Source: an uncultured Acidobacteriota bacterium
Lineage (GTDB): Bacteria; Acidobacteriota; Thermoanaerobaculia; Multivoradales; UBA5704
Reading direction: 5' to 3'
Length of the DNA: 64,000 nucleotides
NCBI GenBank assembly: GCA_963770895.1
Contig: CAVYRF010000001.1
Location: forward strand, 448,001-512,000
This document shows positions 10,465 to 40,275 of this stretch, piece after piece (the first letter of the stretch is position 1; the number at the start of each line of letters is the position of its first letter). The notes below the pieces were generated by a model. It worked only from the letters and a program-made list of their open reading frames with translations. It had not been told where the DNA came from and did no database searches. The translations under genes and the position numbers were made by a program.

Positions 10465-15023
<4,559 letters not shown>

Positions 15024-15025
15024 CG

Positions 15026-25900: not shown

Positions 25901-28593
25901 ACGATCCCTTCTTCAGTCTGGGCGGCGACTCGATCCGTTCCCTCCAGGTGATCGCGCTCGCCAGGAAGCGGGGACTCGCGATGACCCTCCAGGACCTGTT
26001 CCAGCGGCCGACGATCCGCCGCTTGGCGCAGGTCGTGCGGCTCGACGGTGTGGCGCCCGAGGCGGAATCTGTCCTGGCCCCCTTCGCCCTGATCGCCGCG
26101 GAGGACCGCGAACGGCTCGACGCCGCGATCGAGGACGCCTACCCGCTGGCGCGGCTCCAGGCCGGCATGCTGTTCCACAGTGAGCTCGCGCCGGCGTCGG
26201 CGATCTACCACGACCTCCACAGCTTCCACCTCCGGGCCCCCCTCGAGCCGGGCCGGATGCGCGAAGCCCTGCGCCAGGTCTCGCTGCTCCACCCCATGCT
26301 GCGGACTTCCTTCGACCTCGGAGACTTCCGCGAGCCCCTGCAACTGGTGCACGCCGGCGTCACCGTGCCGCTGGAGGTCTACGCCCCGCTGCGGGGGGGG
26401 CCGGACGAGCAGGCGGAGCTCCTGTCGGAGTGGCTGGCCGAGGAGCGGCGGCGAGGGTTCGACTGGACGCGTCCGCCCCTCGTCGCCTTCCACGTCCACC
26501 CGCGGGGCGAGGAGAGCTTCCAGATCACCTTGAGCTTCCATCACGCCGTCCTGGACGGCTGGAGCGCCGCCACCCTGCTCACCGACCTTTTCCGACGCTA
26601 CGCCCTGCTCCTCCGGGGTGAGCAGCCGCCCTCAAACTCCCCTCCCGAGGTGGCCTACCGGGACTTCGTGGCGCTCGAGCGCGCGGCGCGCGCCTCGCCA
26701 GAGGCGCGCAGCTTCTGGGGCCGGATGCTCGACGGCGCCGAGCCGGCCCGTCTGCCGCGCCTGGCGCCGGCGGCCGGGAGGACGGCGGCCGTGCGCGAGA
26801 TCCATCGCCCCATCGATCCGGCCCTGTCGGACGCCGCCCACCGCATGGCCCGCCGGGCCGAGGTGCCGCTCAAGAGCCTCCTGCTGGCGCTGCACGTCAA
26901 GGTCGCCGGACTCCTCGGCGGCACCCGCGACGTGCTCACCGGCCTGGTCTCGCACGGCCGGCCGGAGCACCCCGACAGCGAGCGGATCCTGGGACTCTTT
27001 CTCAACACCTTGCCCTTCCGGATCGAGTTGCACGCAGGCTCCTGGCGGGATCTCGCCCGCGAGGTCTTCGACCTGGAGCGCCGGATGCTCCCCTTCCGGC
27101 GTTTTCCGTTCGCCGACATGCGCGCTCCGGGGGGCGGCCGGCCGGGTCCGGAGATCGTCTACAGCTATCTCCACTTCCACGTCTACCAGGCCACCATGGA
27201 CGTGCACGGGACCGAGGTCCTGGGACGGTACGGTTACGAGGAAACCAACTTTCCCCTGGTCGTCAACCTTTCGCTCGATCCCTTCTCGCAGCAGCTGCGG
27301 CTGGACCTCTCCTGCCGCACGCCGGATCTCGACCCGCTGGAGGCCGAAAGATTCGCCGATTTCCTGCTCCGCGCCCTGGAGGCGGCCACGGCCGACGCGG
27401 AGTCCCCGCATGACGCGCTCAGCCTCTCGGCTGCCGAGCGCCAGCAGCTCCTCGACCGCCTGGACCAACCGGTCGACCGGCTACCGGTTGCGCAGCCGCG
27501 GAGCCCCGGCAGGGCCCTGGTGGCGCCGCGGACGCCGGTGGAGGAGGTCCTGGTGGAGATCTGGGCGGAGATCCTGGGTACGGGGAGAGTGGGCGTCCGC
27601 GACAGCTTCTTCGATCTCGGCGGGCACTCCCTGACCGCCGTTCACCTGATGGCCCGCATCAAGCGGCGGCTCGGCAGGACGCTCCCCCTGACCGCCCTGT
27701 TCGAGGCGCCCACCGTGGAGGCCCTGGCCGCGCTGCTCTCCCGGCCGGGCACCGAGATCGCGGAGCTGCGGCGTCCGGCCGTGGTCGTCCTCAAACCGGA
27801 GGGGGGCCGCCCCCCCTTCTTCTGCGTCCACCCCGTCGGCGGCAACGTCCTTTGCTATCTGGATCTGGCGCGGCATCTCCCGGCGGAGCAGCCGTTCTAC
27901 GGCCTCCAGACGCCCGGTGCCGGGCCGGCCAGCCTGGAAGAGATCGCCACCCGCTACCTGAGCGAGCTGCGGCGGGTCTGGCCGCGGGGTCCCTACCGGC
28001 TCGGGGGCTGGTCCCTGGGCGGGCTGATCGCGTTTGAGATGGCGCGGCAGCTGGCAGCGCAAGGGGAGCAGCCCGAGCTGGTGGCGCTGATCGACACGCT
28101 GCCGCCGGCTCCTGCCCCGGAGCCGGCACAGGGGGAGCTGGTGGCCCGATTCGCCGAGGATCTAGGCCAGCTCCTGGGCGGCGACCTCGGGATCCCGCCC
28201 GAGAGGCTGCGCAGCCTTGCCAGGGGAGAGACGCTGGACCAAGCCGTCCGGCAGGCCCACGCCGCGGGCCTGCTGCCGGAAGAGGTGGGCGTCGCCCAGA
28301 TTGCGCCGCTCTTCGCGACCTTCGCCGCCAACCTGCGGGCGGGGCGATCGTACGACCCCGGACCCTACCCGGGGCGCCTCACCCTCTGGATGGCGGACGC
28401 GACCCTGGCCACGGTCCCCGATCTGCCCGACCGCTGGGGCCGCCTGGCTCTGGCGGGCCTGGAGACGAGCACGCTGATGAGCGACCACTACGGCCTGCTG
28501 CGCCGGCCCGCCGTCGAACGGCTGGCCGGGGAGCTCGCCGCCCGCCTCGGGCTGGTCGACATCGACGACCAGCCCGGCGCCGTCTGCTGGTAA
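22981..28593 (+). CDS. NRPS: degenerate C (interface-like)-A(Asn)-T-C-T-TE
   Basis: The N-terminal C-like domain has PPLAADG in place of HHxxxDG. A code DLTKVGEVGK (Asn-type); T GGDSI; C HHAVLDG; T GGHSL; TE GWSLG. Confidence 0.93.
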   Translation: MMQQAASAGFRLSPQQQHVWWAQLGEHSAAFVVQARIDVTGPLDRARLAAALAAVVERHEILRTAFPRLPGLGIPVQAIAGAGAIDWRESSLTGLPAALRQAALDRLCDDVRELPFDLAQGPLVRAILIVLGGERHALLVTQPPLAADGPSLDLLAADTAAAYHGRLAGEALQYADLAEILHEWQGSPAEEAGPAFWRDQDLSALVRVPAGPAGLPDGQPFRPRRVRRHLGRAAIEEAAARLGTPLWQLLLAGWMGAIHASTGEEELVVGVLFDGRTCEEFRGALGPFARYVPVRGRAAADSTLAELCGALADTLANAARRQDFFSSEPVERLLAQHGATGWPFGFDYRQRGEPAAVPGSPRFAIGDGYLGLDRFGVRLSVLDDGRSLRAELTYDPALVRPGEAGRSLERLARVLDGLLAGSPLGEIEVLTDDERRELLALDRTETAVPAGLLAHQLFEEQARRAPDALAVVHAGCAWTYGELDARANRLARWMCAAGLGPGSFVGLCLQRSPELVAAVLGTLKAGAAYVPLDPGAPAERLAWMAEDAGLSLLLTRESLLPLLSGEDGEAPPPVADPADLAYVIYTSGSTGRPKGVMIAHRGLVNYLLWARQTYGAGEGAGAPVHSAIGFDLTVTSLLVPLAAGTAVTLVDEGRAVEALAGALRGTGGFSLVKLTPAHLDVLNAVLAEGELAGRARVLVIGGEALRGESVAPWREHAADTRLINEYGPTEATVGCCVHQVVPDDPQAGAVAIGHAIANTRLHVVGRGMRRVPLGAPGELWIGGDGLARGYLGRPELTAERFVPDPFAEEAGRAGERLYRTGDLVRRGRDSGLEFLGRVDGQLKIRGFRIEPGEIEAVLAAHPKVRECVVLARETQHGKQLVACVVPRSPAGRPAAAELRRQLEERLPDYMVPSFFAVLESLPLTPNGKVDRRALLASGLPEHEETPYAPPRTLVEEVLAEIWMELLGMSRVGIDDPFFSLGGDSIRSLQVIALARKRGLAMTLQDLFQRPTIRRLAQVVRLDGVAPEAESVLAPFALIAAEDRERLDAAIEDAYPLARLQAGMLFHSELAPASAIYHDLHSFHLRAPLEPGRMREALRQVSLLHPMLRTSFDLGDFREPLQLVHAGVTVPLEVYAPLRGGPDEQAELLSEWLAEERRRGFDWTRPPLVAFHVHPRGEESFQITLSFHHAVLDGWSAATLLTDLFRRYALLLRGEQPPSNSPPEVAYRDFVALERAARASPEARSFWGRMLDGAEPARLPRLAPAAGRTAAVREIHRPIDPALSDAAHRMARRAEVPLKSLLLALHVKVAGLLGGTRDVLTGLVSHGRPEHPDSERILGLFLNTLPFRIELHAGSWRDLAREVFDLERRMLPFRRFPFADMRAPGGGRPGPEIVYSYLHFHVYQATMDVHGTEVLGRYGYEETNFPLVVNLSLDPFSQQLRLDLSCRTPDLDPLEAERFADFLLRALEAATADAESPHDALSLSAAERQQLLDRLDQPVDRLPVAQPRSPGRALVAPRTPVEEVLVEIWAEILGTGRVGVRDSFFDLGGHSLTAVHLMARIKRRLGRTLPLTALFEAPTVEALAALLSRPGTEIAELRRPAVVVLKPEGGRPPFFCVHPVGGNVLCYLDLARHLPAEQPFYGLQTPGAGPASLEEIATRYLSELRRVWPRGPYRLGGWSLGGLIAFEMARQLAAQGEQPELVALIDTLPPAPAPEPAQGELVARFAEDLGQLLGGDLGIPPERLRSLARGETLDQAVRQAHAAGLLPEEVGVAQIAPLFATFAANLRAGRSYDPGPYPGRLTLWMADATLATVPDLPDRWGRLALAGLETSTLMSDHYGLLRRPAVERLAGELAARLGLVDIDDQPGAVCW

Positions 28594-28636
28594 CCCCCCC
28601 CGCTCCATCCAGCCATCCGCGCTCCTCCGGGCGGCA

Positions 28637-28664
28637 GGCTCCGGCCCTGTGCAGGGCCGGAGCC
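28637..28664. terminator. GC-rich hairpin between convergent genes (likely terminator)
   Basis: Perfect inverted repeat GGCTCCGGCCCTG-TG-CAGGGCCGGAGCC just after the NRPS stop. There is no U-tract. Confidence 0.55.
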
Positions 28665-28687
28665 CACGCCGTCCCCACCCTGGCGGC

Positions 28688-29125
28688 TCAGTCGTCCTGG
28701 CCGGGCTCGCAGGCGCAGGCGGGTAGCGGCACCTGGGAGAGGTAGAGGTCGGTGGGGGTGGTCAATCGCAGCATGCAGCCCTTTCTGTCCTGGTTGGCGT
28801 AGACCTCGTACACCACGCCCGAATTCGAGGCGAAGCGGGTCTTCGAAGTCAGCACGCGCAGGTCCGCCGCCAGACGGGAGTTGGGACGCGGCATGTTGGC
28901 GACCTGTTGCAACAGATCCTGCATCGCGCTCACCGCGAGGGTGTGCGCCACCGCCCGCGGCTCCTTGTTGTCGACCAGCATCTGCTCGATGCCCTGCTGC
29001 ACCTGCGCCCCGCATTCGCCGCCGGCGAGGTTGTCGATGCGCTGCGGGTTATATGTCGCACACCCCGCGGCGCCTGAGAGCATTGCTGCCAGCGCCGCGG
29101 CGGCCAAGCTACTCTTGAAGTTCAT
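28688..29125 (-). CDS. Hypothetical lipoprotein (145 aa)
   Basis: RBS GGAGG precedes the ATG. Signal peptide MNFKSSLAAAALAAMLSGAAG-C (lipobox-like) and a C-terminal CAC motif. Confidence 0.7.
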   Translation of the reverse strand: MNFKSSLAAAALAAMLSGAAGCATYNPQRIDNLAGGECGAQVQQGIEQMLVDNKEPRAVAHTLAVSAMQDLLQQVANMPRPNSRLAADLRVLTSKTRFASNSGVVYEVYANQDRKGCMLRLTTPTDLYLSQVPLPACACEPGQDD

Positions 29126-29403
29126 AGAGCCTCCTGAAAGACTCCCACGCGGCCGCGCATGGGGTCCTGCCAAAAGATGCGCCGGCCGCTTCCCCGCGGG
29201 GACATGGGGTGGGCGCGAGACCCGTGCCGCCTCTGGCGCACAGGCGGTGTTTCCGGCCATCCGGCTCTGGTAGACTGATGCCGGCGCGAGCAGGTCGCGT
29301 CATGTCCGCGCAAGGGCCGCGCCCACCTGCACCGAGCAACGTTGCCTTCCCTGCGCAACCTCTTTCGCCTGTCTTGCGGACCAGGCATACGAAGGAGGTA
29401 AGC

Positions 29404-30882
29404 GTGCACCTCGAACAACAGAAGAAACAGGCCCGCGAGCTGTTGCGGGCAGTCCGCGCAGGCAGCGACGACGCCCTCGCCCGGCTGCGCAGCCGCAGCC
29501 TTCGTTGGGCCGGCGTGGATGTCGCCGTCGTGCGGCAAGACGTGGCCTTGCACGATGCGCAGTTCGTGATCGCGCGGGAGCAAGGGTTCGCCAGCTGGAC
29601 CAAGCTGAAAGCCTACGCAGAACCGTCTCCGCACGCACGCCATACGCGGCTCTTCGTCGCCGACGTGCAGTGGCTCACGGAGCGGGCTCGTGGCCTCCTG
29701 CGGACCCGCCAGTCGGCAGGTCCGGCGGCGCTGGAGCAGATTCGCGCCTGGCACCCGCGTTTTGACGGTTGCTCCGACGACGAGATCCTGCGTGCGCCGC
29801 TGACCGAGGCAGACGCTCAACTCGTCTATGCCAGGGAGCATGGGTTCGATCGTTGGAGCGACCTGCTCGAGCGCGTCAACCTGCTTGCCTCGGCGCCGCA
29901 CCCTGAGGCGACGGAACCCTTCCTGGCCGCCTTTCGGGCCATGGAAGCGGGAGATGCCGCAGGCCTGCATTCGTTGCTGCTGCGCCACCCGCGGCTGGTC
30001 AAGGAAGCCGGCACCAACGGCAATACGCTGCTCAACCTCGCGGTGAGCCTCGCCGCGAAGTCCCCACGTGGTCCTGCAGGAATGCGGCTGGTGGAGTCTC
30101 TGCTTGCTGCCGGCGCGGATGTGAACGAAGCGAACGACCGGGGATGGACGCCCTTGCATGCGGCGGCGTACTCAAACCACTGCGCGATTGCCACTGCATT
30201 GATCCAGCGCGGAGCAGACCTGGACCTGGAAGCCCACGGTTCGGGAGGAACTCCCTTGATCACCGCGTTGTTCTGGGGGCACCGCGAAGTGGCCGATGTG
30301 CTGGGCCGCCACTGCCTGGCTCCCGGCAATCTACGCGCCGCCGCCGGCTTGGGGAGCCATCAGCTCCTGGAGCAGTGCTTCTCCGGCGAACGGACGCTCA
30401 CCACGGATGCTTTCGCGGCACGAGGATTCTACCGGCCGCATAGTGGATTTCCGGACTGGCGCCCGTCGGCCGATCCCCAGGAGGTCCTGGACGAGGCGCT
30501 GGTCTGGGCATGTAAGAGCGGCCGCACGGAGGTGCTCCCGCGCCTGGTTCGAGCTGGGGCGCGCCTGGACACCGACCCGTATCGCGGCACGCCGCTGATC
30601 TGGGCGGCGGTCTGCAACCGCATGGACACGGCCGAATGGCTGATCGATCACGGAGCGACCGTAGACCTGAAGGCCACGTTCGGCGGTCTCACGCACGGCC
30701 AGGGCGTGACCGCACTGCACATGGCATCGCAGAATGGCCACCTCGCCATGGTGCAGCTCCTCATCCAAAGAAAAGCGGATCCGAAGATCAAGGATGACCT
30801 GTATCACGGCGACGCCGAAGGGGCAGCCAGCCACTTCGGGCAGATCGCCGTGCGTGATTACCTGCGCTCTATCGGGCGATAG
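29404..30882 (+). CDS. Ankyrin repeat protein
   Basis: RBS AAGGAGG then GTG. N-terminal LEQQKKQARELL motif; ankyrin repeats GWTPLHAAA, GTPLITA, GTPLIWAA, GVTALHMA. Confidence 0.88.
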   Translation: MHLEQQKKQARELLRAVRAGSDDALARLRSRSLRWAGVDVAVVRQDVALHDAQFVIAREQGFASWTKLKAYAEPSPHARHTRLFVADVQWLTERARGLLRTRQSAGPAALEQIRAWHPRFDGCSDDEILRAPLTEADAQLVYAREHGFDRWSDLLERVNLLASAPHPEATEPFLAAFRAMEAGDAAGLHSLLLRHPRLVKEAGTNGNTLLNLAVSLAAKSPRGPAGMRLVESLLAAGADVNEANDRGWTPLHAAAYSNHCAIATALIQRGADLDLEAHGSGGTPLITALFWGHREVADVLGRHCLAPGNLRAAAGLGSHQLLEQCFSGERTLTTDAFAARGFYRPHSGFPDWRPSADPQEVLDEALVWACKSGRTEVLPRLVRAGARLDTDPYRGTPLIWAAVCNRMDTAEWLIDHGATVDLKATFGGLTHGQGVTALHMASQNGHLAMVQLLIQRKADPKIKDDLYHGDAEGAASHFGQIAVRDYLRSIGR

Positions 30883-30937
30883 ATCGATTCCCGCTGGACC
30901 TGCCGCGGCGGGAGTGGCGGCGAGGAGCGCGGTGCCC

Positions 30938-30967
30938 TTGCCGCACGACCGGCAGTGCCGATATACT
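30938..30967 (+). promoter_or_regulatory. Putative sigma70 promoter for the Cys-rich peptide gene
   Basis: TTGCCG-N18-TATACT upstream of 31047. Confidence 0.55.
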
Positions 30968-31046
30968 TAAATCAAGCGCTGCAGGCGATTCTGCGCGAAA
31001 TCCTGCTTTCGTCGCTTCCCATTTCGTGGAACAGAAAGGACTTGTC

Positions 31047-31430
31047 ATGTCGAAGATCCGTATCCTGCTTGTCCCTGCCATCCTGCTGATTGTCGCTTTG
31101 ACCGCCGGAACGGCCTTCGGAGCAGCTGCCGACACGCAGCCGGGCACGGCGTCCGCTTCGCTGGTTGCGCCGGCGCCAGCCTGCCATGCCAACGCGTCCA
31201 TGCTGGCAGTGCCGACCCTGCTGCCCTTGGCGCAACAGCTCAGCTCCTCCGAACCTCTCCTTAAAACCAACATGTGCGGCTCGTGCAGCGACGCCGTATG
31301 CCAAGGCGTGGGCGTGAACTTCGTGTGCAAGATCGTGGGCACTCAACGGTACCATTGCATCAACGCGTTGGAGAACTTCTGCTCGGACAATACCGCGCAG
31401 TGCGAGTGCGAGCTCACTGGCGGTAACTGA
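31047..31430 (+). CDS. Secreted Cys-rich mini-protein, family A (127 aa)
   Basis: RBS AAAGGA. Signal peptide, Ala/Pro-rich pro-region, and a C-terminal 8-Cys domain CGSCSDAVCQG...CEC. Confidence 0.8.
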   Translation: MSKIRILLVPAILLIVALTAGTAFGAAADTQPGTASASLVAPAPACHANASMLAVPTLLPLAQQLSSSEPLLKTNMCGSCSDAVCQGVGVNFVCKIVGTQRYHCINALENFCSDNTAQCECELTGGN

Positions 31431-31587
31431 CGCTCACTACCTCGACCTTCCGGTGGGCCGCCTTCGACCTGGCGCCCACCAGAAGATTCCCAGGCGTTGG
31501 GTTGCGTCACGGTCGGGCGCCACTTCCTGGCCGCCCTCCAGCTCATCTTTGAGCCCGCGGCGCGCGATCGGCCGTCGTCAGGCCATT

Positions 31588-32223
31588 TCAGGCGGTGGGA
31601 GCAGAGTACGACAGCTCAACAAAGCCGTTCTTGTAAGCGACTACGTTCGTCAAATCCCACCTCTCCTCCGTCAGGGCACCACCGAAGAGCCGAAGTCCTT
31701 CACCCAACAGAACGGGCGCTATCGTCAGGCTGATCTGGTCCACCAAGCCCAGCTCCAGGAAGCGCTGGCTCAGCATGGCGCCGCCGACGAGCCAGATGTT
31801 GCGATAGCGAGATGCGAGTCTCCCATCGATCAGTGTCTTGAGATCGCCCGCATAGAATTGGACGCTTTTCCTTGCCGGCGGCCATTCCCTGCTGGTCACC
31901 ACCACGACCGGAGTATCGCCGTATGGCCAGCCTAGCTCAAGCGCATGTTCATAGGTGCGGGAACCGAGCACGTAACAGTCGATCGCCTTGACGAAGGCCG
32001 CGGCTTCCTCCTCTGAAATGGAAACCCCGGCGTCGTAGGTGCCGCCAGCGCCATGCAGCCAGGAGACGCTGTTGTCCTTCTTCGCGATGAAGCCGTCCAA
32101 ACTGGAAACCACGTGCAACGTTACACTTCGTCGTGTTGCATCTCCTTCGCTGCGTGCCAAGAGTTCCTCCTTGCTTGGGTCGACACTGGCGCGGCTTCTC
32201 CTACGCACCGCATCTTGGGTCAT
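31588..32223 (-). CDS. Dihydrofolate reductase / RibD C-terminal family protein
   Basis: VSSLDGFIA, VLGSRTYE, IWLVGGA and PVLLGEG motifs. The start is uncertain. Confidence 0.88.
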   Translation of the reverse strand: MTQDAVRRRSRASVDPSKEELLARSEGDATRRSVTLHVVSSLDGFIAKKDNSVSWLHGAGGTYDAGVSISEEEAAAFVKAIDCYVLGSRTYEHALELGWPYGDTPVVVVTSREWPPARKSVQFYAGDLKTLIDGRLASRYRNIWLVGGAMLSQRFLELGLVDQISLTIAPVLLGEGLRLFGGALTEERWDLTNVVAYKNGFVELSYSAPTA

Positions 32224-32281
32224 GTTAATCTGGTGCCGTTCGCGACCACTTCCTTGGAGCGGGCCACGCCCACCGATCACG

Positions 32282-32485
32282 ATGAAAACACTAGAGATCG
32301 AGATTCCTGACCAGCTCGGCCGCCAGATCGAAGAGCTCGTGCGCCGCGGCTGGTTCACCAACGAGAGCGATCTGACCCGCCAGGCGCTCGGCGACTTCTT
32401 GCGCCATCACCTTCTCGATCTTCAGGAGCAGCACCAGCTCGGCGACATAGAGTGGGCGCGCAGCCTCAAATCGCAGGCCGAATGA
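32282..32485 (+). CDS. CopG/ribbon-helix-helix antitoxin-like protein
   Basis: MKTLEIEIPDQL...GWFTNESDLTRQAL pattern; coupled (ATGA) to a PIN gene. Confidence 0.75.
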   Translation: MKTLEIEIPDQLGRQIEELVRRGWFTNESDLTRQALGDFLRHHLLDLQEQHQLGDIEWARSLKSQAE

Positions 32486-32985
32486 AGCGGATCGTCTGCG
32501 ACACCGGTCCGCTGATTCATCTCTTCGAAGCGAATCTCTTGAACCTCCTGGAGGCCGCTGGGGAGAGTCTCATCCCTCCCGGCGTCGCCGCTGAGCTCGA
32601 AGCTGCGGCACCTGACCTGAAGGTTGATGACCTGCCATGGCTGGTCACTCGTCCTCTGCGCCAACCTCACGATGCCCAGGCCAGAGACTGGCACCGCGCT
32701 GGTCTGCTCCACTTGGGCGAATCGGAGGCCCTGGCTCTCGCGCAGCAGGAGCAGGCCGGCTGGTTCCTCACCGATGACAGCGCCGCGCGTGTGGTCGCCG
32801 AGCAGATGGCGGTCGAGGTGCATGGTTCGCTCGGAGTCCTCCTGTGGGGCGCTGCGACTGGCTTCTTCGTCGATCTTCCCGCCGCAGAAGTGGCACTCGA
32901 CCGCCTGCGCAACTCGTCGCTCTGGCTCTCTCCGCGCGTGTTGAGCGAAGCGCGTCGCGCACTCCTCGACCTCCTCACCTCCTGA
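32482..32985 (+). CDS. PIN-domain (DUF3368-like) putative toxin
   Basis: IVCDTGPLIHL, LHLGESEALALA, LTDDSAAR and GSLGVL motifs. Confidence 0.85.
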   Translation: MKRIVCDTGPLIHLFEANLLNLLEAAGESLIPPGVAAELEAAAPDLKVDDLPWLVTRPLRQPHDAQARDWHRAGLLHLGESEALALAQQEQAGWFLTDDSAARVVAEQMAVEVHGSLGVLLWGAATGFFVDLPAAEVALDRLRNSSLWLSPRVLSEARRALLDLLTS

Positions 32986-33070
32986 GGCCACGGGGATTCG
33001 GCTCGCGCGGCCAGGGGCGGTGGCTCGGCCGGGCAAACGCTTTGTCACTGCTGGCGCCGGCGCGCCCGTG

Positions 33071-33099
33071 TTGAGGTTCGACCTTGCCGTCAGTATATT
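33071..33099 (+). promoter_or_regulatory. Putative sigma70 promoter, leaderless transcript
   Basis: TTGAGG-N17-TATATT lies 7 nt before the ATG at 33107, with no RBS. Confidence 0.55.
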
Positions 33100-33106
33100 A
33101 GCGATC

Positions 33107-33922
33107 ATGAACCGGAGGCGGTGCCGGCCGACCACGACCCTCGGCTTGTTGGCCCTGATCGCGGCGGCGCTTGCGGGCGGGGCGCGCGCCGCGGCGCCTC
33201 GGGCCGGGGTCTGGTTCTGTGGCGACTTCGAGACCGGCGGGCTCCAGGGGTGGAGCTGGGACATGGCGAGCAGTGAGTCGGCCCAGGTGGTGACCCGGCC
33301 GGTGCGCAGCGGGCGCTACGCGGTGCGCATCACGGTGGCGCCCGGCGATCGGGGCGCCGGCAAGGAGCGGGCCGAGCTCAAGTTGGAGGACAAAGACGTC
33401 GAGCGCGTCCACGGTCGCCAGGGCGGCGACCTCTGGTACGGGTGGAGCCTGTTCATCCCCGACGGCTACGCCGACCCGCCGGAGGATCAGTTCCAGATCC
33501 TCGGCCAGTGGCACCACCGCCCGCCCGAGCCGACGGCCGCGGACCCGCGGCCGCGGGTGGGCGGCCCGCCCCCGCTCTCCCTCCACCTGGTCGCCGAGGA
33601 GGGCCGGCACTTCCTGGTGCTGATCGGCCAGACCTCGCCCAAGGCGCCCCCCCGCAACCTGGGAGAGCACCCGATCCGGCTGGGAACCTGGATCGACCTG
33701 GTATTCCACATCCACTGCTCGACCGGCGCCGACGGCTTCGTGGAAGCCTGGTGCGACGCCCAGCCCTTCACCAAGGGCCGCATCGGCGGCGCGACCCTCT
33801 ACACCCCGACCGCCAACTACCTGCGCCTGGGCCTGTACCGCACCAAGGGCATCGCCACCACCAACCACGTCTTCTACGACGAGGTGCGAATCGGCAGCTC
33901 CTATCAAGCTGTGGCGCCGTGA
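33107..33922 (+). CDS. Secreted polysaccharide lyase-like (jelly-roll) protein
   Basis: Signal peptide; GDFETG, ERAEL, WYGWS, ILGQWH, GFVEAW, YLRLGLYR and VFYDEVRIG motifs. Confidence 0.75.
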   Translation: MNRRRCRPTTTLGLLALIAAALAGGARAAAPRAGVWFCGDFETGGLQGWSWDMASSESAQVVTRPVRSGRYAVRITVAPGDRGAGKERAELKLEDKDVERVHGRQGGDLWYGWSLFIPDGYADPPEDQFQILGQWHHRPPEPTAADPRPRVGGPPPLSLHLVAEEGRHFLVLIGQTSPKAPPRNLGEHPIRLGTWIDLVFHIHCSTGADGFVEAWCDAQPFTKGRIGGATLYTPTANYLRLGLYRTKGIATTNHVFYDEVRIGSSYQAVAP

Positions 33923-33975
33923 GCCCAGTGGTCGGTGCACTTCGAAGGAGCCGGCCGAGACTTCCATTGAGATTG

Positions 33976-34066
33976 GCAACCACGCTCCGCCGGCCCCCGG
34001 CCCGATCGCGGTCGCGCCGCCAGGCGCGCCGCGATTGGGGCAACAGGAGCCTGCCGGGCCGCGAGA
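33976..34066 (+). repeat. REP-like hairpin repeat, copy 1
   Basis: Near-identical to 34465-34556. Core GATCGCGGTCGCGCC-GCCA-GGCGCGCCGCGATTGGGGCAAC. Confidence 0.9.
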
Positions 34067-34222
34067 TCCGTGCCGTCGGCAAGCCGAGGCCGGTTACGGC
34101 GCCAATGGTTCCGCCACAGCCCCATGCCGCGGCAGGGTCGGATGCAACCCGGCGTCGCACTGTAGTTGCTGAACAGGCCGGCGTGGCGCTCCAGCCCCGC
34201 AAGCGATCGAGGAGAGAACGAC

Positions 34223-34438
34223 ATGAGGCGAACTCGCGTGCTGATGATGGGAATCATGGTGGCGCTGATGATCCTGGCGGGCCGCGGCCAGGCCAGGGCG
34301 GACCTCCAGACCTGCATCGACTTGTGCTATCGGGCAGAGCAGCTCTGCAAGCTCAACTGCGACGGCAACACAACCTGCATCAACACCTGCGAGACGAACT
34401 ACAACACGTGCGTTTTTGACGGCTGCGACCGCGAATAG
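34223..34438 (+). CDS. Secreted Cys-rich mini-protein, family B (71 aa, CX3C helical-hairpin pattern)
   Basis: RBS GAGGAG. Signal peptide ending ARA, then mature DLQTCIDLCYRAEQLCKLNCDGNTTCINTCETNYNTCVFDGCDRE. Confidence 0.8.
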   Translation: MRRTRVLMMGIMVALMILAGRGQARADLQTCIDLCYRAEQLCKLNCDGNTTCINTCETNYNTCVFDGCDRE

Positions 34439-34464
34439 GCGCCAGAGGCGCGGCGCCGCTCATC

Positions 34465-34556
34465 GCAACGACGCTCCGCCGGCCCCCCGGCCCGATCGCG
34501 GTCGCGCCGCCAGGCGCGCCGCGATTGGGGCAACAGGAGCTTGCCGGGCCGCGAGA
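34465..34556 (+). repeat. REP-like hairpin repeat, copy 2
   Basis: Direct repeat of 33976-34066 with few differences. Confidence 0.9.
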
Positions 34557-34560
34557 CGGG

Positions 34561-34588
34561 CCGGGCCGGCTGTGTGCAGCTGGCCCGG
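34561..34588. terminator. Hairpin between convergent peptide genes
   Basis: CCGGGCCGGCTG-TGTG-CAGCTGGCCCGG. Confidence 0.45.
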
Positions 34589-34602
34589 CTGTGTGCGCAG
34601 CC

Positions 34603-34956
34603 TTACGGTCCAGGCTGGCAGACGCACCTGCGGCCGCCGACGGGGGCCGCGCAATAGATGGTAGGCGTGCAGAACAAGGGCGGACCAGAACTGGCGGGAC
34701 AGGGAGAGAAAAAGGGCTGGCCCTGGCAGACGGTGTCGCTGCAGGTGGTGCTGCAGGCCGCGCTGTCGAGCGCCAAAGGCGCGCTCCACGGCGTAAGCAG
34801 CGGCAGCGCGGCAGGGATCGAGTTGCTCGCCAGGCAGGAAGCGGGTGCGGCCGGGGTCGAGGGGCCGGTGGGCTCGGCCGCGTGGCTCCACCCGGGTAGC
34901 AGTGCTCCCGCCAGCAGCAGGGCAAGGGCGGCGACGGCCAGCGTGCGATGTTTCAT
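34603..34956 (-). CDS. Secreted Cys-rich mini-protein, family A (117 aa)
   Basis: RBS AAGGAG and an AT-rich promoter region (34975-35010). Signal peptide, pro-region, and an 8-Cys domain CSTTCSDTVCQG...CVC. Confidence 0.82.
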   Translation of the reverse strand: MKHRTLAVAALALLLAGALLPGWSHAAEPTGPSTPAAPASCLASNSIPAALPLLTPWSAPLALDSAACSTTCSDTVCQGQPFFSPCPASSGPPLFCTPTIYCAAPVGGRRCVCQPGP

Positions 34957-35175
34957 CCTGCACACTCCTTTCGTCTAATAGTATAATAGTGTTCGTTAAC
35001 TAAAAAATGTGACAGGACCGTTCGCCGGGGGTAGCCCGCAGGCCTGGTGCTCGCCGGCGCCCAGCAGCAGGTAAGCAGATCGATCCGCTCAGTGTCCGGC
35101 AGGTTCGATCGCGGGCAGTGGACGCCGGGCGGCGCCGGAGGTGCCCGCCGGGCGCTCGGGTATAGTGTGCGGCCC

Positions 35176-36360
35176 ATGGACCGGCTTGCCCGCCTTGCGG
35201 GTTTCCAGCTGCTGGTGGTGACCGGCAAAGGCGGCGTCGGCAAGTCGGCCGTGGCCGCCAGCCTGGGCCGGCTGCTGGCGCGGGCCGGGCGCCAGGTGCT
35301 GGTGCTGGAGGTCGATCCGCGCGAAAACCTGCACCAGATGCTGGGCGTGGCGCCGTCGGGCGGCGCCGTGGTGGCGGCTGGCGGCGGGCTGTGGGTGCAG
35401 AACCTGAAGCCCGGCCAGGTGCTGGACGACATCGTGCGCGAGCGGCTGAAGATCGAGATGCTGGCGCGCCGCGTGCTGGCGAGCCCCATCTACCAGCAGT
35501 TCAGCGCCGGTGCGCCGGGCCTGGCCGAGCTGGCGATCCTGGGGCACGCGCTGCGCCTGCTGCGGCGCGCCGGCGATCCCGCGGCGCCGCGCCTGGACCT
35601 GGTGGTGCTGGACGCGCCGGCCACCGGTCACGGTGTGCGCCTGCTGACCGCGCCGCGCCTGGTCGCCGACGTGATCCACGGCGGCCCCTTTGGCGCCCTG
35701 GCCGGCGAGTTGGCCGCCTTTGTCGCCGATCCCGGCCGCTGCGGCATCGTGGTGGTCACCCAGGCCGAAGAGATGCCCGTCGAAGAGGCCCTGGACCTGC
35801 GCCAGGCGCTGGGCCGCCAGCTCGACCGGCAGCCCGAGCTGCTGGTCGTCAACGGCCTCTACCCGCCGCTGCCGGCGGCGCCCGCGGTGCCTGCGATGGG
35901 CGCAGAGCCGGCGGCGGCCCCGCCCGCTGTGGTAGCAGCGCCCGCAGTGCGCGCGGTGCCTGGGGCCGCCGCAGAGCCCGTGGTGCCGGCGTCGCCGGGC
36001 GGTGCGGGGTCGGCGGCATCGCCGGCGCAGGCGCCGGGTGCGCCGGATGCCGGCGTCGCCTCGCCCGACGACCTGCTCGCGCTGTGGCGCCAGCGCCGGG
36101 CGCTCAACGAACGCGAGATGGCCCGCCTGGCCGCCGTCTGGGAAGGGCCGCGGGTCGATCTGCAGCAGTTGCCGCTTGAACGCGGCCCGGCGCTGACCGA
36201 AGCGCTGGCGGCGCGCCTGGACGCCGGCCTGGCCGCGACGGCCGCGACGCCATCGCAGCCAGCCGTGCCAACCGCGGCAGCCAATCAGGCCGGCACGGCC
36301 GCCGCCGGCGATCCGACCGGCCCGGCGGCCGCGACGGACGTTCCGGGGGAGGCGCCTTGA
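35176..36360 (+). CDS. ArsA/Get3-family P-loop ATPase, subunit 1
   Basis: TGKGGVGKS and VLDAPATGH; Ala/Pro-rich insertions; TATAGT lies 9 nt upstream of the ATG. Confidence 0.88.
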   Translation: MDRLARLAGFQLLVVTGKGGVGKSAVAASLGRLLARAGRQVLVLEVDPRENLHQMLGVAPSGGAVVAAGGGLWVQNLKPGQVLDDIVRERLKIEMLARRVLASPIYQQFSAGAPGLAELAILGHALRLLRRAGDPAAPRLDLVVLDAPATGHGVRLLTAPRLVADVIHGGPFGALAGELAAFVADPGRCGIVVVTQAEEMPVEEALDLRQALGRQLDRQPELLVVNGLYPPLPAAPAVPAMGAEPAAAPPAVVAAPAVRAVPGAAAEPVVPASPGGAGSAASPAQAPGAPDAGVASPDDLLALWRQRRALNEREMARLAAVWEGPRVDLQQLPLERGPALTEALAARLDAGLAATAATPSQPAVPTAAANQAGTAAAGDPTGPAAATDVPGEAP

Positions 36361-37445
36361 ACCTGCTGTCGGACAGCCATCCGCTGCTCATCTTTGTGGG
36401 CTCGGGCGGGGTGGGCAAGACGACTCTGGCGGCGTCGGTGGGCGTGGCGTCGGCGCGGGCGGGGCGCGACACGCTGGTGATGACGTTCGATCCTTCGCTG
36501 CGGCTCAAGGATGCGCTGGGGGTGGGCGACGCGGCGCGCGAGCGCGAGGTGCAGGTGGAGCTGGCGGCGGAGGGGCGCCTCTTTGCCAGCCTGCTGGATG
36601 CGCGGCGCACGTTTGACGCGCTGATCGAGCGCTACGCTCCCGACGCCGAGGCGCGCCGCCGGGTGCTGGACAACCGCTTCTACCAGCACCTGTCGGGGGG
36701 GCTCGGTGGCATCTTGGAATACATGGCGGTCGAGCGGCTCTTCGAGGTGGCGACGGAGGGGCGCTACGCGCAGGTGATCCTGGACACGCCGCCGACGCGC
36801 CAGGCGCTGGACTTCCTGGAGGCGCCGTCGCGCATCATCGGCTTCCTGGACAGCGGCGCGCTCAAGGTGGCGCTGCGCCCCTGGTTTGACGAGCAGGGCC
36901 GGCTCAAGGCGGCGGCGCGCTGGGGCGGGCTGGGCCGCCGCGCCGAGCGCTTCCTGGACGAGGTGGTGGGGCTGGATCTGCTGCGCGACATGGCCGAGTT
37001 CTTTCAGGCGTTCGCGCCGCTGTACACCGGCTTCCGCCAGCGGGCCGCCGAGGTGGAGGCCCTGCTGCGCTCGCGCCGCACGCTGTTCGTGCTGGTCGCC
37101 GGCCCCGGCGAAGAGCGCATCCCCGACACGCTGTTTTTTGCCCGCCGCCTGCAGCAGGCGGGCTACCAGCTGGGGCCCATCGTGGTCAACCGCGTCCACC
37201 CCACCCTGAGCCGCGCCGCCGGGGCTCAGGGTGCCGCGGCGCCCGCGGAGGCCGCCGGCCTGGACCTGCTGGCCTGGCTGGGCGAGCGCGACCGCCGCGG
37301 TCTGGAGCACCTGGACCAGCTGCTGGCCCCCGCCCAGCCGCGGGTCGCCCTGCCGCTACGGCCGACCGAGCCGACCGATCTGGCCTCCCTGGCTGCCATG
37401 GGGGACGACCTCGCCGCCCGCCTGGCCGCCGGATCCGGTCGCTAG
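36357..37445 (+). CDS. ArsA/Get3-family P-loop ATPase, subunit 2
   Basis: GSGGVGKTT, TFDPS, EYMAVE and ILDTPP; TTGA overlap with the upstream gene. Confidence 0.9.
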   Translation: MNLLSDSHPLLIFVGSGGVGKTTLAASVGVASARAGRDTLVMTFDPSLRLKDALGVGDAAREREVQVELAAEGRLFASLLDARRTFDALIERYAPDAEARRRVLDNRFYQHLSGGLGGILEYMAVERLFEVATEGRYAQVILDTPPTRQALDFLEAPSRIIGFLDSGALKVALRPWFDEQGRLKAAARWGGLGRRAERFLDEVVGLDLLRDMAEFFQAFAPLYTGFRQRAAEVEALLRSRRTLFVLVAGPGEERIPDTLFFARRLQQAGYQLGPIVVNRVHPTLSRAAGAQGAAAPAEAAGLDLLAWLGERDRRGLEHLDQLLAPAQPRVALPLRPTEPTDLASLAAMGDDLAARLAAGSGR

Positions 37446-37461
37446 TGTCCCGGGCGGGATA

Positions 37462-37644
37462 CTAGAAGGTGCAGCCGTTCGTTATCACCGTGCAGTTCGC
37501 CCTGACCGTGGAGGTTTCGCAGTCGCAGGACATGATGCTGGCGAGGGTGGCGCCCGCGGCCGCACGCCGCAGGCTCGACAGGTCGTACAGGGTTTCGCGG
37601 TGCAGCTGAAGGGTGGTGGCCGGCCTGTTTTTGCGCAGTTTCAT
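37462..37644 (-). CDS. Putative RiPP (lanthipeptide-like) precursor peptide, 60 aa
   Basis: RBS AAGGAG. Basic leader with LQLHRETLYDL, an AAAG linker, and a core with 4 Cys and 9 Ser/Thr. Confidence 0.7.
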   Translation of the reverse strand: MKLRKNRPATTLQLHRETLYDLSSLRRAAAGATLASIMSCDCETSTVRANCTVITNGCTF

Positions 37645-37801
37645 GTCGCAGCTCCTTAGGGTTCTCGCCAGGATACCGCAGGATGAGACACAGCGACGGC
37701 GCCACCGCCGCCACCGCCGCCAGTGGCAACGGTGACAGTGCCGGCATCGGCGGCATTGGGGTGGGCGGCCGATGCCCGCGGCGGCCGGGAGAGAGGGCGA
37801 T

Positions 37802-37854
37802 TTTGCCGCAGTGCGTCAAGGACGCTTGACGACTTTGCCGCAGTGCGGTAAGAT
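37802..37854 (+). promoter_or_regulatory. Sigma70 promoter with two PhaR-type operator repeats
   Basis: TTGACG(37826)-N17-TAAGAT(37849). Exact 14-bp direct repeat TTTGCCGCAGTGCG at 37802 and 37834. Confidence 0.75.
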
Positions 37855-37881
37855 TTGTTTCGTTCGAGGGAGGAGGATCGG

Positions 37882-38409
37882 ATGGTCCGTCTGATCAAGC
37901 GTTACGAAAGCCGCAAGCTGTACGACACCGAGGAGAGCCGCTACGTGTCCCTCGAGGAGATCGCCAGCTGGGTGCGCGACGGCCAGGAAGTGCGGGTGGT
38001 CGACAATGCGACCAACGGCGACGTGACCTCGCAGACCCTCACCCAGATCATCCTGGACGAGGGGCGGCGCGGCACCTCGGCGCTGCCGAGCGAGCTGCTG
38101 CACGAGCTGGTGCGGCTGGGCGAGCGGGCGGTGCACACCGGCGTCGAGCAGGTGCAGCACGGCGTCGACCGCCTGGTGCAGGCGTCCATCGACCGCCTGG
38201 GCCCGGTGCGGCGGGCGCGCGAGGAGATGTCCAGCCTGCGCTCGCGCCTCGAGCAGCTGGAAACGTCGCTGGCGGCGCTCGATTCCGAGGTGCTGGTGGG
38301 GATGGCGACGCCGCCTCCGCCGGCGCCGGCCGCGACGGACAGCACGGAAAGCGTGGTGCCGCCGGCTGCGGCGCACTCCGCGGTGGCCGGCGAAGGCCCC
38401 GCGACCTGA
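37882..38409 (+). CDS. PHA synthesis regulator (PhaR-like DNA-binding domain protein)
   Basis: IKRYESRKLYDTEESRYVSL...DVTSQTLTQII, typical of the PHB-accumulation regulator N-domain; RBS GGAGG. Confidence 0.88.
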   Translation: MVRLIKRYESRKLYDTEESRYVSLEEIASWVRDGQEVRVVDNATNGDVTSQTLTQIILDEGRRGTSALPSELLHELVRLGERAVHTGVEQVQHGVDRLVQASIDRLGPVRRAREEMSSLRSRLEQLETSLAALDSEVLVGMATPPPPAPAATDSTESVVPPAAAHSAVAGEGPAT

Positions 38410-38550
38410 GGTACCCCTGACCGGGCGGCGCGCCACGGCGCGTGCCGGCGACGTGCCGCCCCGGACCTGACAACTTGCGGTAGCGCCCTTGCGGCGTGGG
38501 CCTGCGGCCCCGCCCCGGCGCCGGCCGCTGATCCACGAAAGAGGTGCACG

Positions 38551-39006
38551 ATGACGACCGACAGCACGCAGGACCGCAAGCTGCAAGACGACGTGAAAGA
38601 CACCGCCCACCGCATCTGGCTGGCCGGGCTGGGCGCCCTGGCCGCCGCCGAGGAGGAGGGCAGCAAGCTGTTCAGCCGCCTGGTCGAGCGCGGCCGCGAC
38701 CTGGAGTCGCGCGGCAAGGTGGAGGTCGACAAGGTGGTCGACCAGGCCAAGACCAAGGCCGGCGACACCTGGAGCGACCTGGGCACCAAGGTGGACGAAG
38801 CCATCTCCTCGGCGCTGCACCGCATGGGCGTGCCGACGCGTGAGGAGATCCGCACCCTGACGCAGCGGGTCGAAGAGCTCAACGCCAAGGTGGAGCAGCT
38901 GCGCCCGCGGGTGACCCCGGCGGCCAACGGCGGCGTCGCCGGCGCCCACGTTGCCGACGACAAGTCGGCGGCCCGCTCGGCCAAGAGCAACGCCAAGGTC
39001 GTGTAA
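38551..39006 (+). CDS. Phasin family / PHA granule-associated protein (PhaF/PhaI-like)
   Basis: IWLAGLGA...EEGSKLFSRLVERG and LHRMGVPTREEI motifs. Confidence 0.9.
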   Translation: MTTDSTQDRKLQDDVKDTAHRIWLAGLGALAAAEEEGSKLFSRLVERGRDLESRGKVEVDKVVDQAKTKAGDTWSDLGTKVDEAISSALHRMGVPTREEIRTLTQRVEELNAKVEQLRPRVTPAANGGVAGAHVADDKSAARSAKSNAKVV

Positions 39007-40275
39007 GTGGTGCAAGCCGGCGCGGGTTTGGCTCGCAACGGGTCTCCTTCCATCGCGCTGGCGCTTGCCGGGGGCGGTCTGGAGGGCGCCATCTACGAGA
39101 TTGGCGCCCTCCGCGCGCTCGACGAGGCGTGCGACGGCCTGGACCTGAACCAACTCTTCCTGTATGTCGGGGTGAGCGCCGGCGCGTTCATCGCCGCCTG
39201 CCTGGCCAACGACCTGTCGACGGCGCAGATGTGCCGCGCCATCGTGTCGCGCGAGCCGGGCGAGCATCCTTTTGTGCCGGAGACGTTTCTCACCCCCGCC
39301 CTGCACCACCTGTGGCGCGGCGGCCGCGAGCTGCCGCGGCTGTTTGGCGAGGCGATGGCGGAGTACCTGGGCGGCGGCGGCGAAAAGTCGTTCTGGGGGT
39401 CGCTGACCCGGCTGGCGCGGGCGCTGCCGGTGGCGGTGTTCGACAACGAACCGATCCGCACGTATCTCGAAAAGATCTACAACCTCAAGTCGCGCACCGA
39501 CGACTTCCGCCAGCTGGGCAAGCGGCTGGTGATCGTGGCGGCCGACCTGGATTCCGGCCAGCCGGTGCGCTTCGGCGAGCCGGGGATGGATCACGTGCCG
39601 ATCTCGGTCGCGGTGCAGGCCAGCACGGCGCTGCCCGGTCTCTATCCGCCGGTGACCGTCGACGGCCGCCAGATGGTGGACGGCGTGCTGCTCAAGACCC
39701 TGCACGCGTCGGTGGCGCTGGAGGCGGGCGCCCAACTGGTGATCTGCATCAACCCCATCGTGCCGGTCGACACGGCGCACGCCGTCGAAGCCGGCTTGAT
39801 GCCCAACCACAGCCTGGGCGGGCGCGGCCTGCCGAGCGTGCTGTCGCAGACCCTGCGCACCATCATCCGTTCGCGGCTGGAGGTGGGCATGGCGGCGTAC
39901 CGCGACAAGTACGACGCCGACGTGCTGCTGCTGGAGCCCGAGCACGACGACTACATGATGTTCTTCACCAACATCTTCGGCTTCGCCGAACGGCGCGCGG
40001 TCTGCGAGCATGCCTACCGCACCACGCGCCACCACCTGCTGACCCACCGCGACACGATCGCGCCGCTGCTCGCCCGCCACGGTGTCACCCTGCGTGAGGA
40101 CGTGCTGGCCGAAGACCGCAACCTGTGGGAGCAGGTGGGGCTGGACCCGGTGAAGCGCTCGCGCCGCCCGTCCGCCGCGGCGGCCGGCGGCGGCCTGGCG
40201 GTGGTGCGCCGCCTGGACGACGCCCTCAACCGCCTGGACCAGCTGGTCGAGGCGCGCCGCACGCCGCCGGCGTAG
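39007..40275 (+). CDS. Patatin-like phospholipase/esterase
   Basis: LAGGGLEGAIYEIG, GVSAG nucleophile motif, ASTALPGLYPP and VDG. The start is 39007 or 39010. Confidence 0.9.
   Translation: MVQAGAGLARNGSPSIALALAGGGLEGAIYEIGALRALDEACDGLDLNQLFLYVGVSAGAFIAACLANDLSTAQMCRAIVSREPGEHPFVPETFLTPALHHLWRGGRELPRLFGEAMAEYLGGGGEKSFWGSLTRLARALPVAVFDNEPIRTYLEKIYNLKSRTDDFRQLGKRLVIVAADLDSGQPVRFGEPGMDHVPISVAVQASTALPGLYPPVTVDGRQMVDGVLLKTLHASVALEAGAQLVICINPIVPVDTAHAVEAGLMPNHSLGGRGLPSVLSQTLRTIIRSRLEVGMAAYRDKYDADVLLLEPEHDDYMMFFTNIFGFAERRAVCEHAYRTTRHHLLTHRDTIAPLLARHGVTLREDVLAEDRNLWEQVGLDPVKRSRRPSAAAAGGGLAVVRRLDDALNRLDQLVEARRTPPA

Follow-up and report, generated by a model that had tools for sequence, protein, structure and literature searches.

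What kind of proteins are encoded by a pair of small cysteine-rich genes in a lower-GC patch of an acidobacterial genome, and are they, as they first appeared to be, bacterial relatives of defensins? The pair, here designated A and B, lies in a window of 64,000 nucleotides (nt), the whole stretch of DNA analyzed, which comes from an uncultured Acidobacteriota bacterium of the class Thermoanaerobaculia (assembly GCA_963770895.1, contig CAVYRF010000001.1, positions 448,001 to 512,000). A first-pass annotation, made from the sequence alone, presented the two as paralogous secreted prepro-peptides with a defensin-like eight-cysteine domain, in which a conserved scaffold carries hypervariable loops. 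We find that A and B belong to an undescribed family of exported proteins of 106-145 amino acids (aa), within which they diverged long ago, and that members of this family are not defensins. The shared architecture and the status of the family are, in our assessment, very likely to be correct.

Gene A (31047..31430, plus strand) encodes a protein of 127 aa and gene B (34603..34956, minus strand) one of 117 aa. Both open reading frames (ORFs) are present with the cysteine framework, the single linker cysteine and the separate ribosome-binding sites that had been attributed to them. The latter are GAAAGGA(G) Shine-Dalgarno-like sites located 6-8 nt before the ATG in both genes (GAAAGGA at 31034..31040 on the plus strand for A; GAAAGGAG at 34965..34972 on the minus strand for B). 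About 80 nt 5' of A there is a sigma-70-like promoter match, TTGCCG-18-TATACT (30938..30967, plus strand), recognized by consensus only. Residues 1-26 of both proteins form a Sec-type signal peptide with a short basic N-terminus, a hydrophobic run and a small-x-small site at the end, where cleavage is predicted between TAFG and AA in A (31047..31124, plus strand) and between WSHA and AE in B (34879..34956, minus strand); AlphaFold2 (AF2) places a helix at residues 4-18 and 4-17, respectively. An Ala/Pro-rich tether follows, comprising residues 27-76 of A (31125..31274, plus strand), with Cys46 and the motif L55-P56-x-L58-x-P60, and residues 27-67 of B (34756..34878, minus strand), with Cys41; the extra cysteine is found in the strings PAPACHAN (A) and PASCLASN (B). 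The C-terminal eight-Cys domain occupies residues 77-127 of A (31275..31427, plus strand; C-x2-C-S-D-A-V-C-Q-G-x6-C-x9-C-x7-C-x6-C-x-C) and residues 68-117 of B (34606..34755, minus strand; C-x3-C-S-D-T-V-C-Q-G-x6-C-x9-C-x5-C-x8-C-x-C).

Compared directly, A and B are only ~27-29% identical, and BLASTP aligns nothing beyond the stretch from the linker to CSDxVCQG (18/43 identities, E-value = 5e-4), so that homology judged on this sequence alignment alone would be doubtful. Their common descent is nevertheless secure, because a single family profile matches both proteins over the full length (E-values of 1.3e-30 for A and 1.4e-27 for B). The two are thus paralogues in the sense of belonging to the same family, but their closeness was overstated, since they represent different, old subfamilies. 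The nearest relatives of A are P0017 (50% identity) and P0005 (45%), and those of B are P0029 (44%) and P0087 (41%). In a FastTree phylogeny of 189 rows, nine intact copies from the source genome are scattered over the tree (8 label changes for 9 rows, versus a shuffled mean of 8.9), with A in a supported set of 8 rows and B on a long, unresolved branch. Given this scatter and the distance of even the nearest relatives of A and B, the copies are old subfamilies rather than products of a recent burst.

To collect members, the source genome (8.16 Mb, 70.7% GC, 3 contigs, 95% complete) was searched with A and B as queries and then with a profile over all six-frame ORFs. Ten intact family members were retrieved (E-values from 1e-22 to 3e-38), along with one further, split copy whose domain part lacks the N-terminus. 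At that locus (L004, G000 C2:3375219-3377079) the half with leader and linker and the half with the domain are parted by a gene for a 429-aa transposase of the Mutator family (PF00872, E-value = 3e-44). A regular expression for the cysteine framework matched 12 of the 76,966 six-frame ORFs of the genome, namely the ten family members and two Cys-rich wrong-frame strings, as against 0-3 matches in five shuffles. The framework is therefore beyond chance.

A profile built from nine sequences (A1) matched 20 of the 41 related genomes, none of which gave more than 8 copies. Among them are 15 of 24 other members of the same taxonomic family and 4 of 16 genomes that belong to different families within the order. 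When the profile was run against 1.84 billion representative proteins (clusters at 50% identity), there were 445 matches at E ≤ 1e-3, of which 82 also passed E ≤ 1e-10; the top-ranking 150 of the 445 representatives are all 106-145 aa long, each being one end-to-end match. The named species-genome collection contributed 23 confirmed loci, all from metagenome-assembled genomes (MAGs), of which 15 are titled 'Thermoanaerobaculia bacterium' and 8 'uncultured Acidobacteriota bacterium'. These are a biased sample, because the scan (alignment A3) used the pattern C-Q-C-W-[YS]-G-P-L and so reaches one subfamily only. In a phylum-wide sample of 301 genomes, with 14 candidates per genome scored, matches were confined to two, the source genome and one other genome of the same order. 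So far, members are known only from uncultured organisms, all within a single order of soil Thermoanaerobaculia (Acidobacteriota). Parts of the window are carried by six soil-metagenome DNA runs from two studies, and no RNA run was among the carriers listed. Contigs from four runs have A identical wherever it is covered, while a single 3.6x contig of run X5, too thin to use, shows three differences in B (P85L, F95L, V106I), all non-synonymous.

The proposal that these genes represent an uncharacterized bacterial family was borne out. Further members turned up in the source genome, in its relatives and in the protein library, amounting to hundreds of homologues, and the annotation of the source-named members looked at is always 'hypothetical protein'. 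Neither A nor B matched any Pfam or NCBIfam family, even with the threshold relaxed to E ≤ 10. Pfam searched with 150 members gave scattered matches only (best E-value = 0.005), NCBIfam searched with 21 members gave nothing significant, and literature searches on cysteine-rich Thermoanaerobaculia proteins or disulfide-rich secreted Acidobacteriota proteins returned nothing relevant among the papers listed.

All members share one layout, in which a Sec-type leader is followed by an Ala/Pro-rich segment of 40-55 residues and a C-terminal eight-Cys domain of ~50 residues. The features of the leader are nearly family-wide: among 168 members, 166 have K/R within the first 8 residues, 164 contain 14 or more consecutive uncharged residues, and every one has an AxA-like site. 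Other export and sorting routes were considered and ruled out: a lipoprotein, as the conserved Cys lies 20-25 residues beyond the h-region; Tat export, as there is no twin arginine; and PEP-CTERM or another C-terminal sorting signal, as there is no C-terminal transmembrane segment. In the 150-row alignment all eight domain cysteines are invariant, and 148 of the 150 sequences have exactly eight domain Cys with the spacing C-x(1-3)-C-x4-C-x8-C-x(5-13)-C-x(5-9)-C-x(4-11)-C-x-C, to which A and B also conform. The count of eight thus holds for the domain, but most members total nine cysteines when the one in the linker is included. The linker Cys is kept in 146 of 149 sequences, and upstream of the domain there is one Cys in 114 members of the 150-member set, two in 28, three in 2 and none in 4. 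Also conserved are G78 (143/150), S81 (129/150), G87 (135/150) and a linker motif L-P-x-[LF]-x-P-x-P, whose P60 occurs in 122/143. The domain is neutral (mean net charge 0, range -4 to +3 over the 168 members; -3 in A and +1 in B), contains 16% Cys and is rich in Gly, Ser, Pro and Thr, a composition that fits a binder better than a membrane-active peptide. The tail C-x-C-W-x-G-P-[LI]-P ends 58 of the 168 members.

This composition could also suit small lectin-like modules that bind carbohydrate or cell wall, functionally like hevein or carbohydrate-binding modules (CBMs), and that coat or recognise polysaccharide. Such a role would agree with a Gly/Ser-rich domain bearing conserved aromatics, with the tryptophan-containing tail, and with the presence of a polysaccharide lyase gene (PF14099) ~700 bp from B. 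However, A and B themselves lack the aromatic tail, and the lyase neighbourhood is not conserved. Among 150 members no Pfam carbohydrate-binding family was matched at E ≤ 1, Chitin_bind_1 being likewise absent, and the frameworks have no CC doublet such as that of the eight-Cys hevein/CBM18 motif. Longer, fused forms, including fusions to enzymes, were not found among 8000 candidates, which is weak evidence. On balance a lectin-like function seems distinctly unlikely.

What fold does this framework support? AF2 gave high-confidence models in which the domain of both A and B is predicted to consist of one helical turn and a small beta-sheet. In the model of A, computed with the 150-row alignment, the domain has a predicted local distance difference test (pLDDT) score of 92-95, with a helical turn at residues 83-85 and strands at 93-97, 100-111 and 117-123. 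The model of B has the same order of elements (domain pLDDT 90-96, helical turn at 75-77). The tether is modelled as disordered, the linkers having a pLDDT of 54-70. A homodimer prediction for residues 40-127 of A scored 0.00 and gave no verdict. Foldseek against the Protein Data Bank (PDB) returned nothing at E ≤ 0.001 for either model, and the fold check proposed at the outset thus yielded confident domain models with no significant match. Both lists are headed by disulfide-rich beta-hairpin modules of animals, namely disintegrins, fibronectin type I domains and the Spaetzle cystine knot, at E-values of ~2.5 or more and probabilities of at most 0.11, the target-normalised template modelling (TM) scores of the top matches being ~0.2-0.47. 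For disintegrins the E-values are 2.8-9.7 with probability ≤ 0.11, and a Pfam match to them is absent among the 150 members. The best VIA-align neighbour of model B is NFAP2 (PDB 8rp9). In the ESM Atlas the best score was 0.78 (for P0002), and the domain of P0005 had no usable named match.

The family profile, searched against PDB sequences, matched only CCCH zinc fingers (Muscleblind; E-values of 0.002-0.005). We rejected a zinc-finger relationship, reading these matches as Cys-composition bias. They nonetheless bear on the possibility that the proteins are periplasmic thiolate metal binders, akin to metallothioneins or zinc ribbons, instead of disulfide-stapled domains. The CxxC and CxC motifs and the high Cys content are compatible with metal binding, and neither DsbB (PF02600) nor VKOR (PF07884) was detected in the 95%-complete source genome. 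Against this stand the Sec export of the proteins, whose source organism has both an enzyme of the DsbA type and an aerobic oxidase, the even and invariant set of eight cysteines with no conserved His, and the dozen divergent paralogues per genome, which would be unusual for metal buffering. The enzyme is the sole DsbA-type match of the genome, a CPFC thioredoxin domain after a long N-terminal extension in a 395-aa open frame (G000 C2:1046263-1047447, minus strand), and the oxidase is of the haem-copper type. The zinc-finger matches are most simply put down to Cys composition. Metal binding is very improbable.

Are the loops of the domain hypervariable, as first described? Between subfamilies they are indeed very different, on a disulfide-type scaffold whose eight cysteines do not vary. 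Within orthologues the picture is another one. The ratio of non-synonymous to synonymous substitution rates (dN/dS), estimated by the Nei-Gojobori method for genus-level orthologue pairs, is 0-0.18 for the domain in three of four orthologue groups, indicating purifying selection, and 0.18-1.96 for the linker across the four groups. The variable domain positions of the four groups number 17, of which 13 are in loops 3-4 (7/32 positions in loop 3 and 6/34 in loop 4, as compared with 0/27 in loop 5 and 0/21 in the tail). The domain is under constraint, with its changes concentrated in one half.

The genomic setting of the genes is variable. A and B lie in a lower-GC stretch (28600..35040; 59-70% GC versus ~73-78% to either side). 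This stretch has no syntenic counterpart in nine same-genus genomes, and the DNA matches listed for these include none to A or B. Directly upstream are two large nonribosomal peptide synthetase genes with condensation-adenylation-thiolation (C-A-T) modules, of which the second gene closes with a thioesterase (14918-28590, plus strand). On the other side follow two tandem genes for ArsA-like ATPases (35047-37445) and then PhaR, phasin and patatin-like genes (35047-40272 in all, plus strand); across the 10-kb query, the ArsA-like pair alone keeps its place in every one of the nine genomes. The lower-GC stretch also contains genes for an ankyrin-repeat protein and a RibD_C reductase, besides that for the PF14099 polysaccharide lyase. 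Between A and B, a small antitoxin-like ORF overlaps one for a 177-aa DUF3368 (PIN-like) protein (32282-32985, plus strand). The two are probably a toxin-antitoxin pair, and their DNA matches other places in two same-genus genomes at 83-89%.

Another ORF between A and B (34223-34438 of the window, plus strand) encodes 71 aa with a signal-peptide-like start and eight cysteines in a different framework, C-x3-C-x6-C-x3-C-x5-C-x3-C-x6-C-x4-C. It has no Pfam or NCBIfam match, and BLASTP within the source genome identified five evident paralogues, at 31-46% identity, as well as a single partial match. This ORF belongs to another family of small exported Cys-rich proteins, unrelated to the first. It is flanked by two direct copies of a GC-rich element resembling repetitive extragenic palindromic (REP) sequences (33975-34066 and 34465-34556; 89/92 identical), each with 58 BLASTN matches genome-wide, most of them over a core of ~50-70 nt.

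Elsewhere, too, the family genes are dispersed and located in flexible genome regions. In relatives, VapB, DUF433, PIN, IS1595 and IS21 genes adjoin family members. Two loci, G001:C310:2495-6119 (L026) and G003:C3:365155-370420 (L033), contain 2-3 divergent members within 4-5 kb, with unlike C-terminal tails and with VapB, DUF433, DUF418, IS1595 and IstB genes as neighbours; these clusters resemble the A-B pair. No neighbour family recurs at the 11 loci of the source genome or at the 23 loci elsewhere, the exceptions being pairwise synteny and one ~810-aa neighbour common to two source-genome loci. This variety bears on the idea that the proteins are secreted signalling peptides (pheromones), each with its own receptor. 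Small exported proteins with subfamily-specific surfaces would suit such a role, but no regulator or receptor gene recurs beside the members at any of these loci, and up to 11 copies per genome in regions rich in insertion sequences (IS) and toxin-antitoxin genes would be atypical. Its probability is slimmer still than that of metal binding.

Taken as a whole, the observations are best explained if the domain is a stable module that works outside the cytoplasm as a binder or inhibitor and owes its specificity to its variable loops, an explanation that falls just short of an even chance; its functional core, that the proteins bind or inhibit something, we would place slightly lower. The explanation draws on the leader, the tether, the cysteine frame, the confident model, purifying selection, the panels of paralogues and the lack of dedicated partner genes. 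According to this scenario, the leader would be cleaved after Sec export and the eight cysteines, assumed to be oxidised, would form four disulfides outside the cytoplasm. The resulting domain would be a rigid, protease-resistant module acting as a target-specific ligand or inhibitor, possibly of a hydrolase or of an envelope component of neighbouring microbes. Its conserved C-terminal half would serve as the core, loops 3-4 would determine specificity, and each genome would keep a panel of ~5-11 different specificities.

Several observations weigh against this scenario. The alignment contains no conserved cleavage motif before the domain, so the linker may stay attached, and the 'prepro' form first assigned to these proteins is at most putative. 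In the fourth orthologue group the domain dN/dS is 0.18-1.9, on few changes, and the selection picture is for this reason not uniform. The lack of a recurrent neighbour that would hint at function and the failure to detect DsbB or VKOR also count on this side, as does the fact that the role proposed below for the linker cysteine depends on an analogy.

Four of the 150 members are without a linker Cys, and they keep all eight domain cysteines, which argues that the ninth is an extra, unpaired position. The most economical explanation, although a tentative one, may be that this tethered Cys acts as an intramolecular thiol aiding disulfide formation or shuffling; alternatively, it might form one intermolecular disulfide. 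The folding-thiol idea rests on an analogy with bovine pancreatic trypsin inhibitor (BPTI), in which a single Cys of the pro region reportedly helps oxidative folding, as Weissman & Kim are said to have described in Cell in 1992; we consider it rather unlikely. As in the BPTI pro region, a lone conserved Cys is carried on a flexible segment N-terminal to a small domain with several disulfides. Unlike that region, the extension here is Ala/Pro-rich and 40-55 residues long, its cleavage is putative, and the two are not homologous.

If the tethered ninth Cys does aid folding, the proteins would carry within themselves a simple solution to the problem of oxidative folding, and should specificity indeed lie in the loops, the family would constitute a ready-made natural library. 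Stable disulfide-rich mini-proteins are in demand as frameworks on which drugs, inhibitors and binders can be built, and bacteria have so far yielded few of them. The present family offers hundreds of natural variants on one invariant eight-Cys frame, with a confidently modelled fold that has no match among solved structures, from a lineage whose named records include no cultured representatives. It merits a database entry of its own in place of 'hypothetical protein'.

How do these proteins compare with defensins and other known systems? Bacterial cis-defensins of the cysteine-stabilised alpha-beta (CS-alpha-beta) type comprise five classes, e.g. xanthusin-1, selected by the pattern C-X(2,18)-C-X3-C-X(2,12)-C-X(4,17)-C-X-C; some classes have long N-terminal tails, and an 'acidobacteresin-1' is reported from Acidobacteria (PMC11561630). 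The family resembles them in small precursor size (30-130 aa as the criterion), signal peptide, disulfide richness, occurrence in soil bacteria and the terminal C-x-C; for acidobacteresin-1 the comparison is by description. None of the 168 family proteins matches the CS-alpha-beta pattern: C-x4-C is invariant in the family, and C-x3-C occurs only in a few genus-level variants that lack the rest of the pattern. The domain is neutral, whereas cis-defensins are cationic, and the AF2 models contain only a 3-residue helical turn plus beta-strands, with no real alpha-helix. No defensin was listed in the Foldseek or VIA-align results for the models of A and B. The defensin label is accordingly dropped.

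In a direct antimicrobial role, the proteins would be Sec-exported defensin- or bacteriocin-like peptides that kill competing bacteria or fungi. A multi-copy, diversified family in accessory genome regions would be in keeping with it, as would a possible gamma-core. This motif is defined as GXC-X3-9-C or, in its levomeric form, C-X3-9-CXG (PMC6062912). The invariant C-x4-C-x-G of the family, C80-x4-C85-x-G87 in A, satisfies the levomeric formula, which is loose enough for chance matches to be common. The motif requires two antiparallel beta-strands and a short turn, but in the models DSSP assigns a helical turn at this place (H83-85 in A, H75-77 in B). Together with the mismatch to the CS-alpha-beta pattern, a domain charge centred on zero, the lack of a significant fold match and the absence of a conserved adjoining immunity or exporter gene at the 11 and 23 loci, this leaves direct killing an unlikely function, though a less remote one than carbohydrate binding.

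Two further groups of known proteins bear comparison with the family. Disintegrins, fibronectin type I domains and the Spaetzle cystine knot are likewise small, loop-dominated domains held by disulfides, a resemblance in kind only. The NFAP2/PAF/AFP antifungal proteins of Ascomycetes share with A and B a ~50-residue, beta-rich, disulfide-stapled secreted domain and are made as prepro-proteins; they differ in being cationic and in the number and spacing of their cysteines. Carried furthest, as a speculative and rather unlikely proposal, the comparison would make the family the equivalent, in bacteria, of the prepro-toxin or defensin families of animals and fungi, built on a new mini-fold. Each genome of these uncultured soil Thermoanaerobaculia might then deploy 5-11 disulfide-knotted, target-specific inhibitors or antimicrobials, each with its own tethered Cys to catalyse oxidative folding, in the source organism against a background of no detected DsbB or VKOR.

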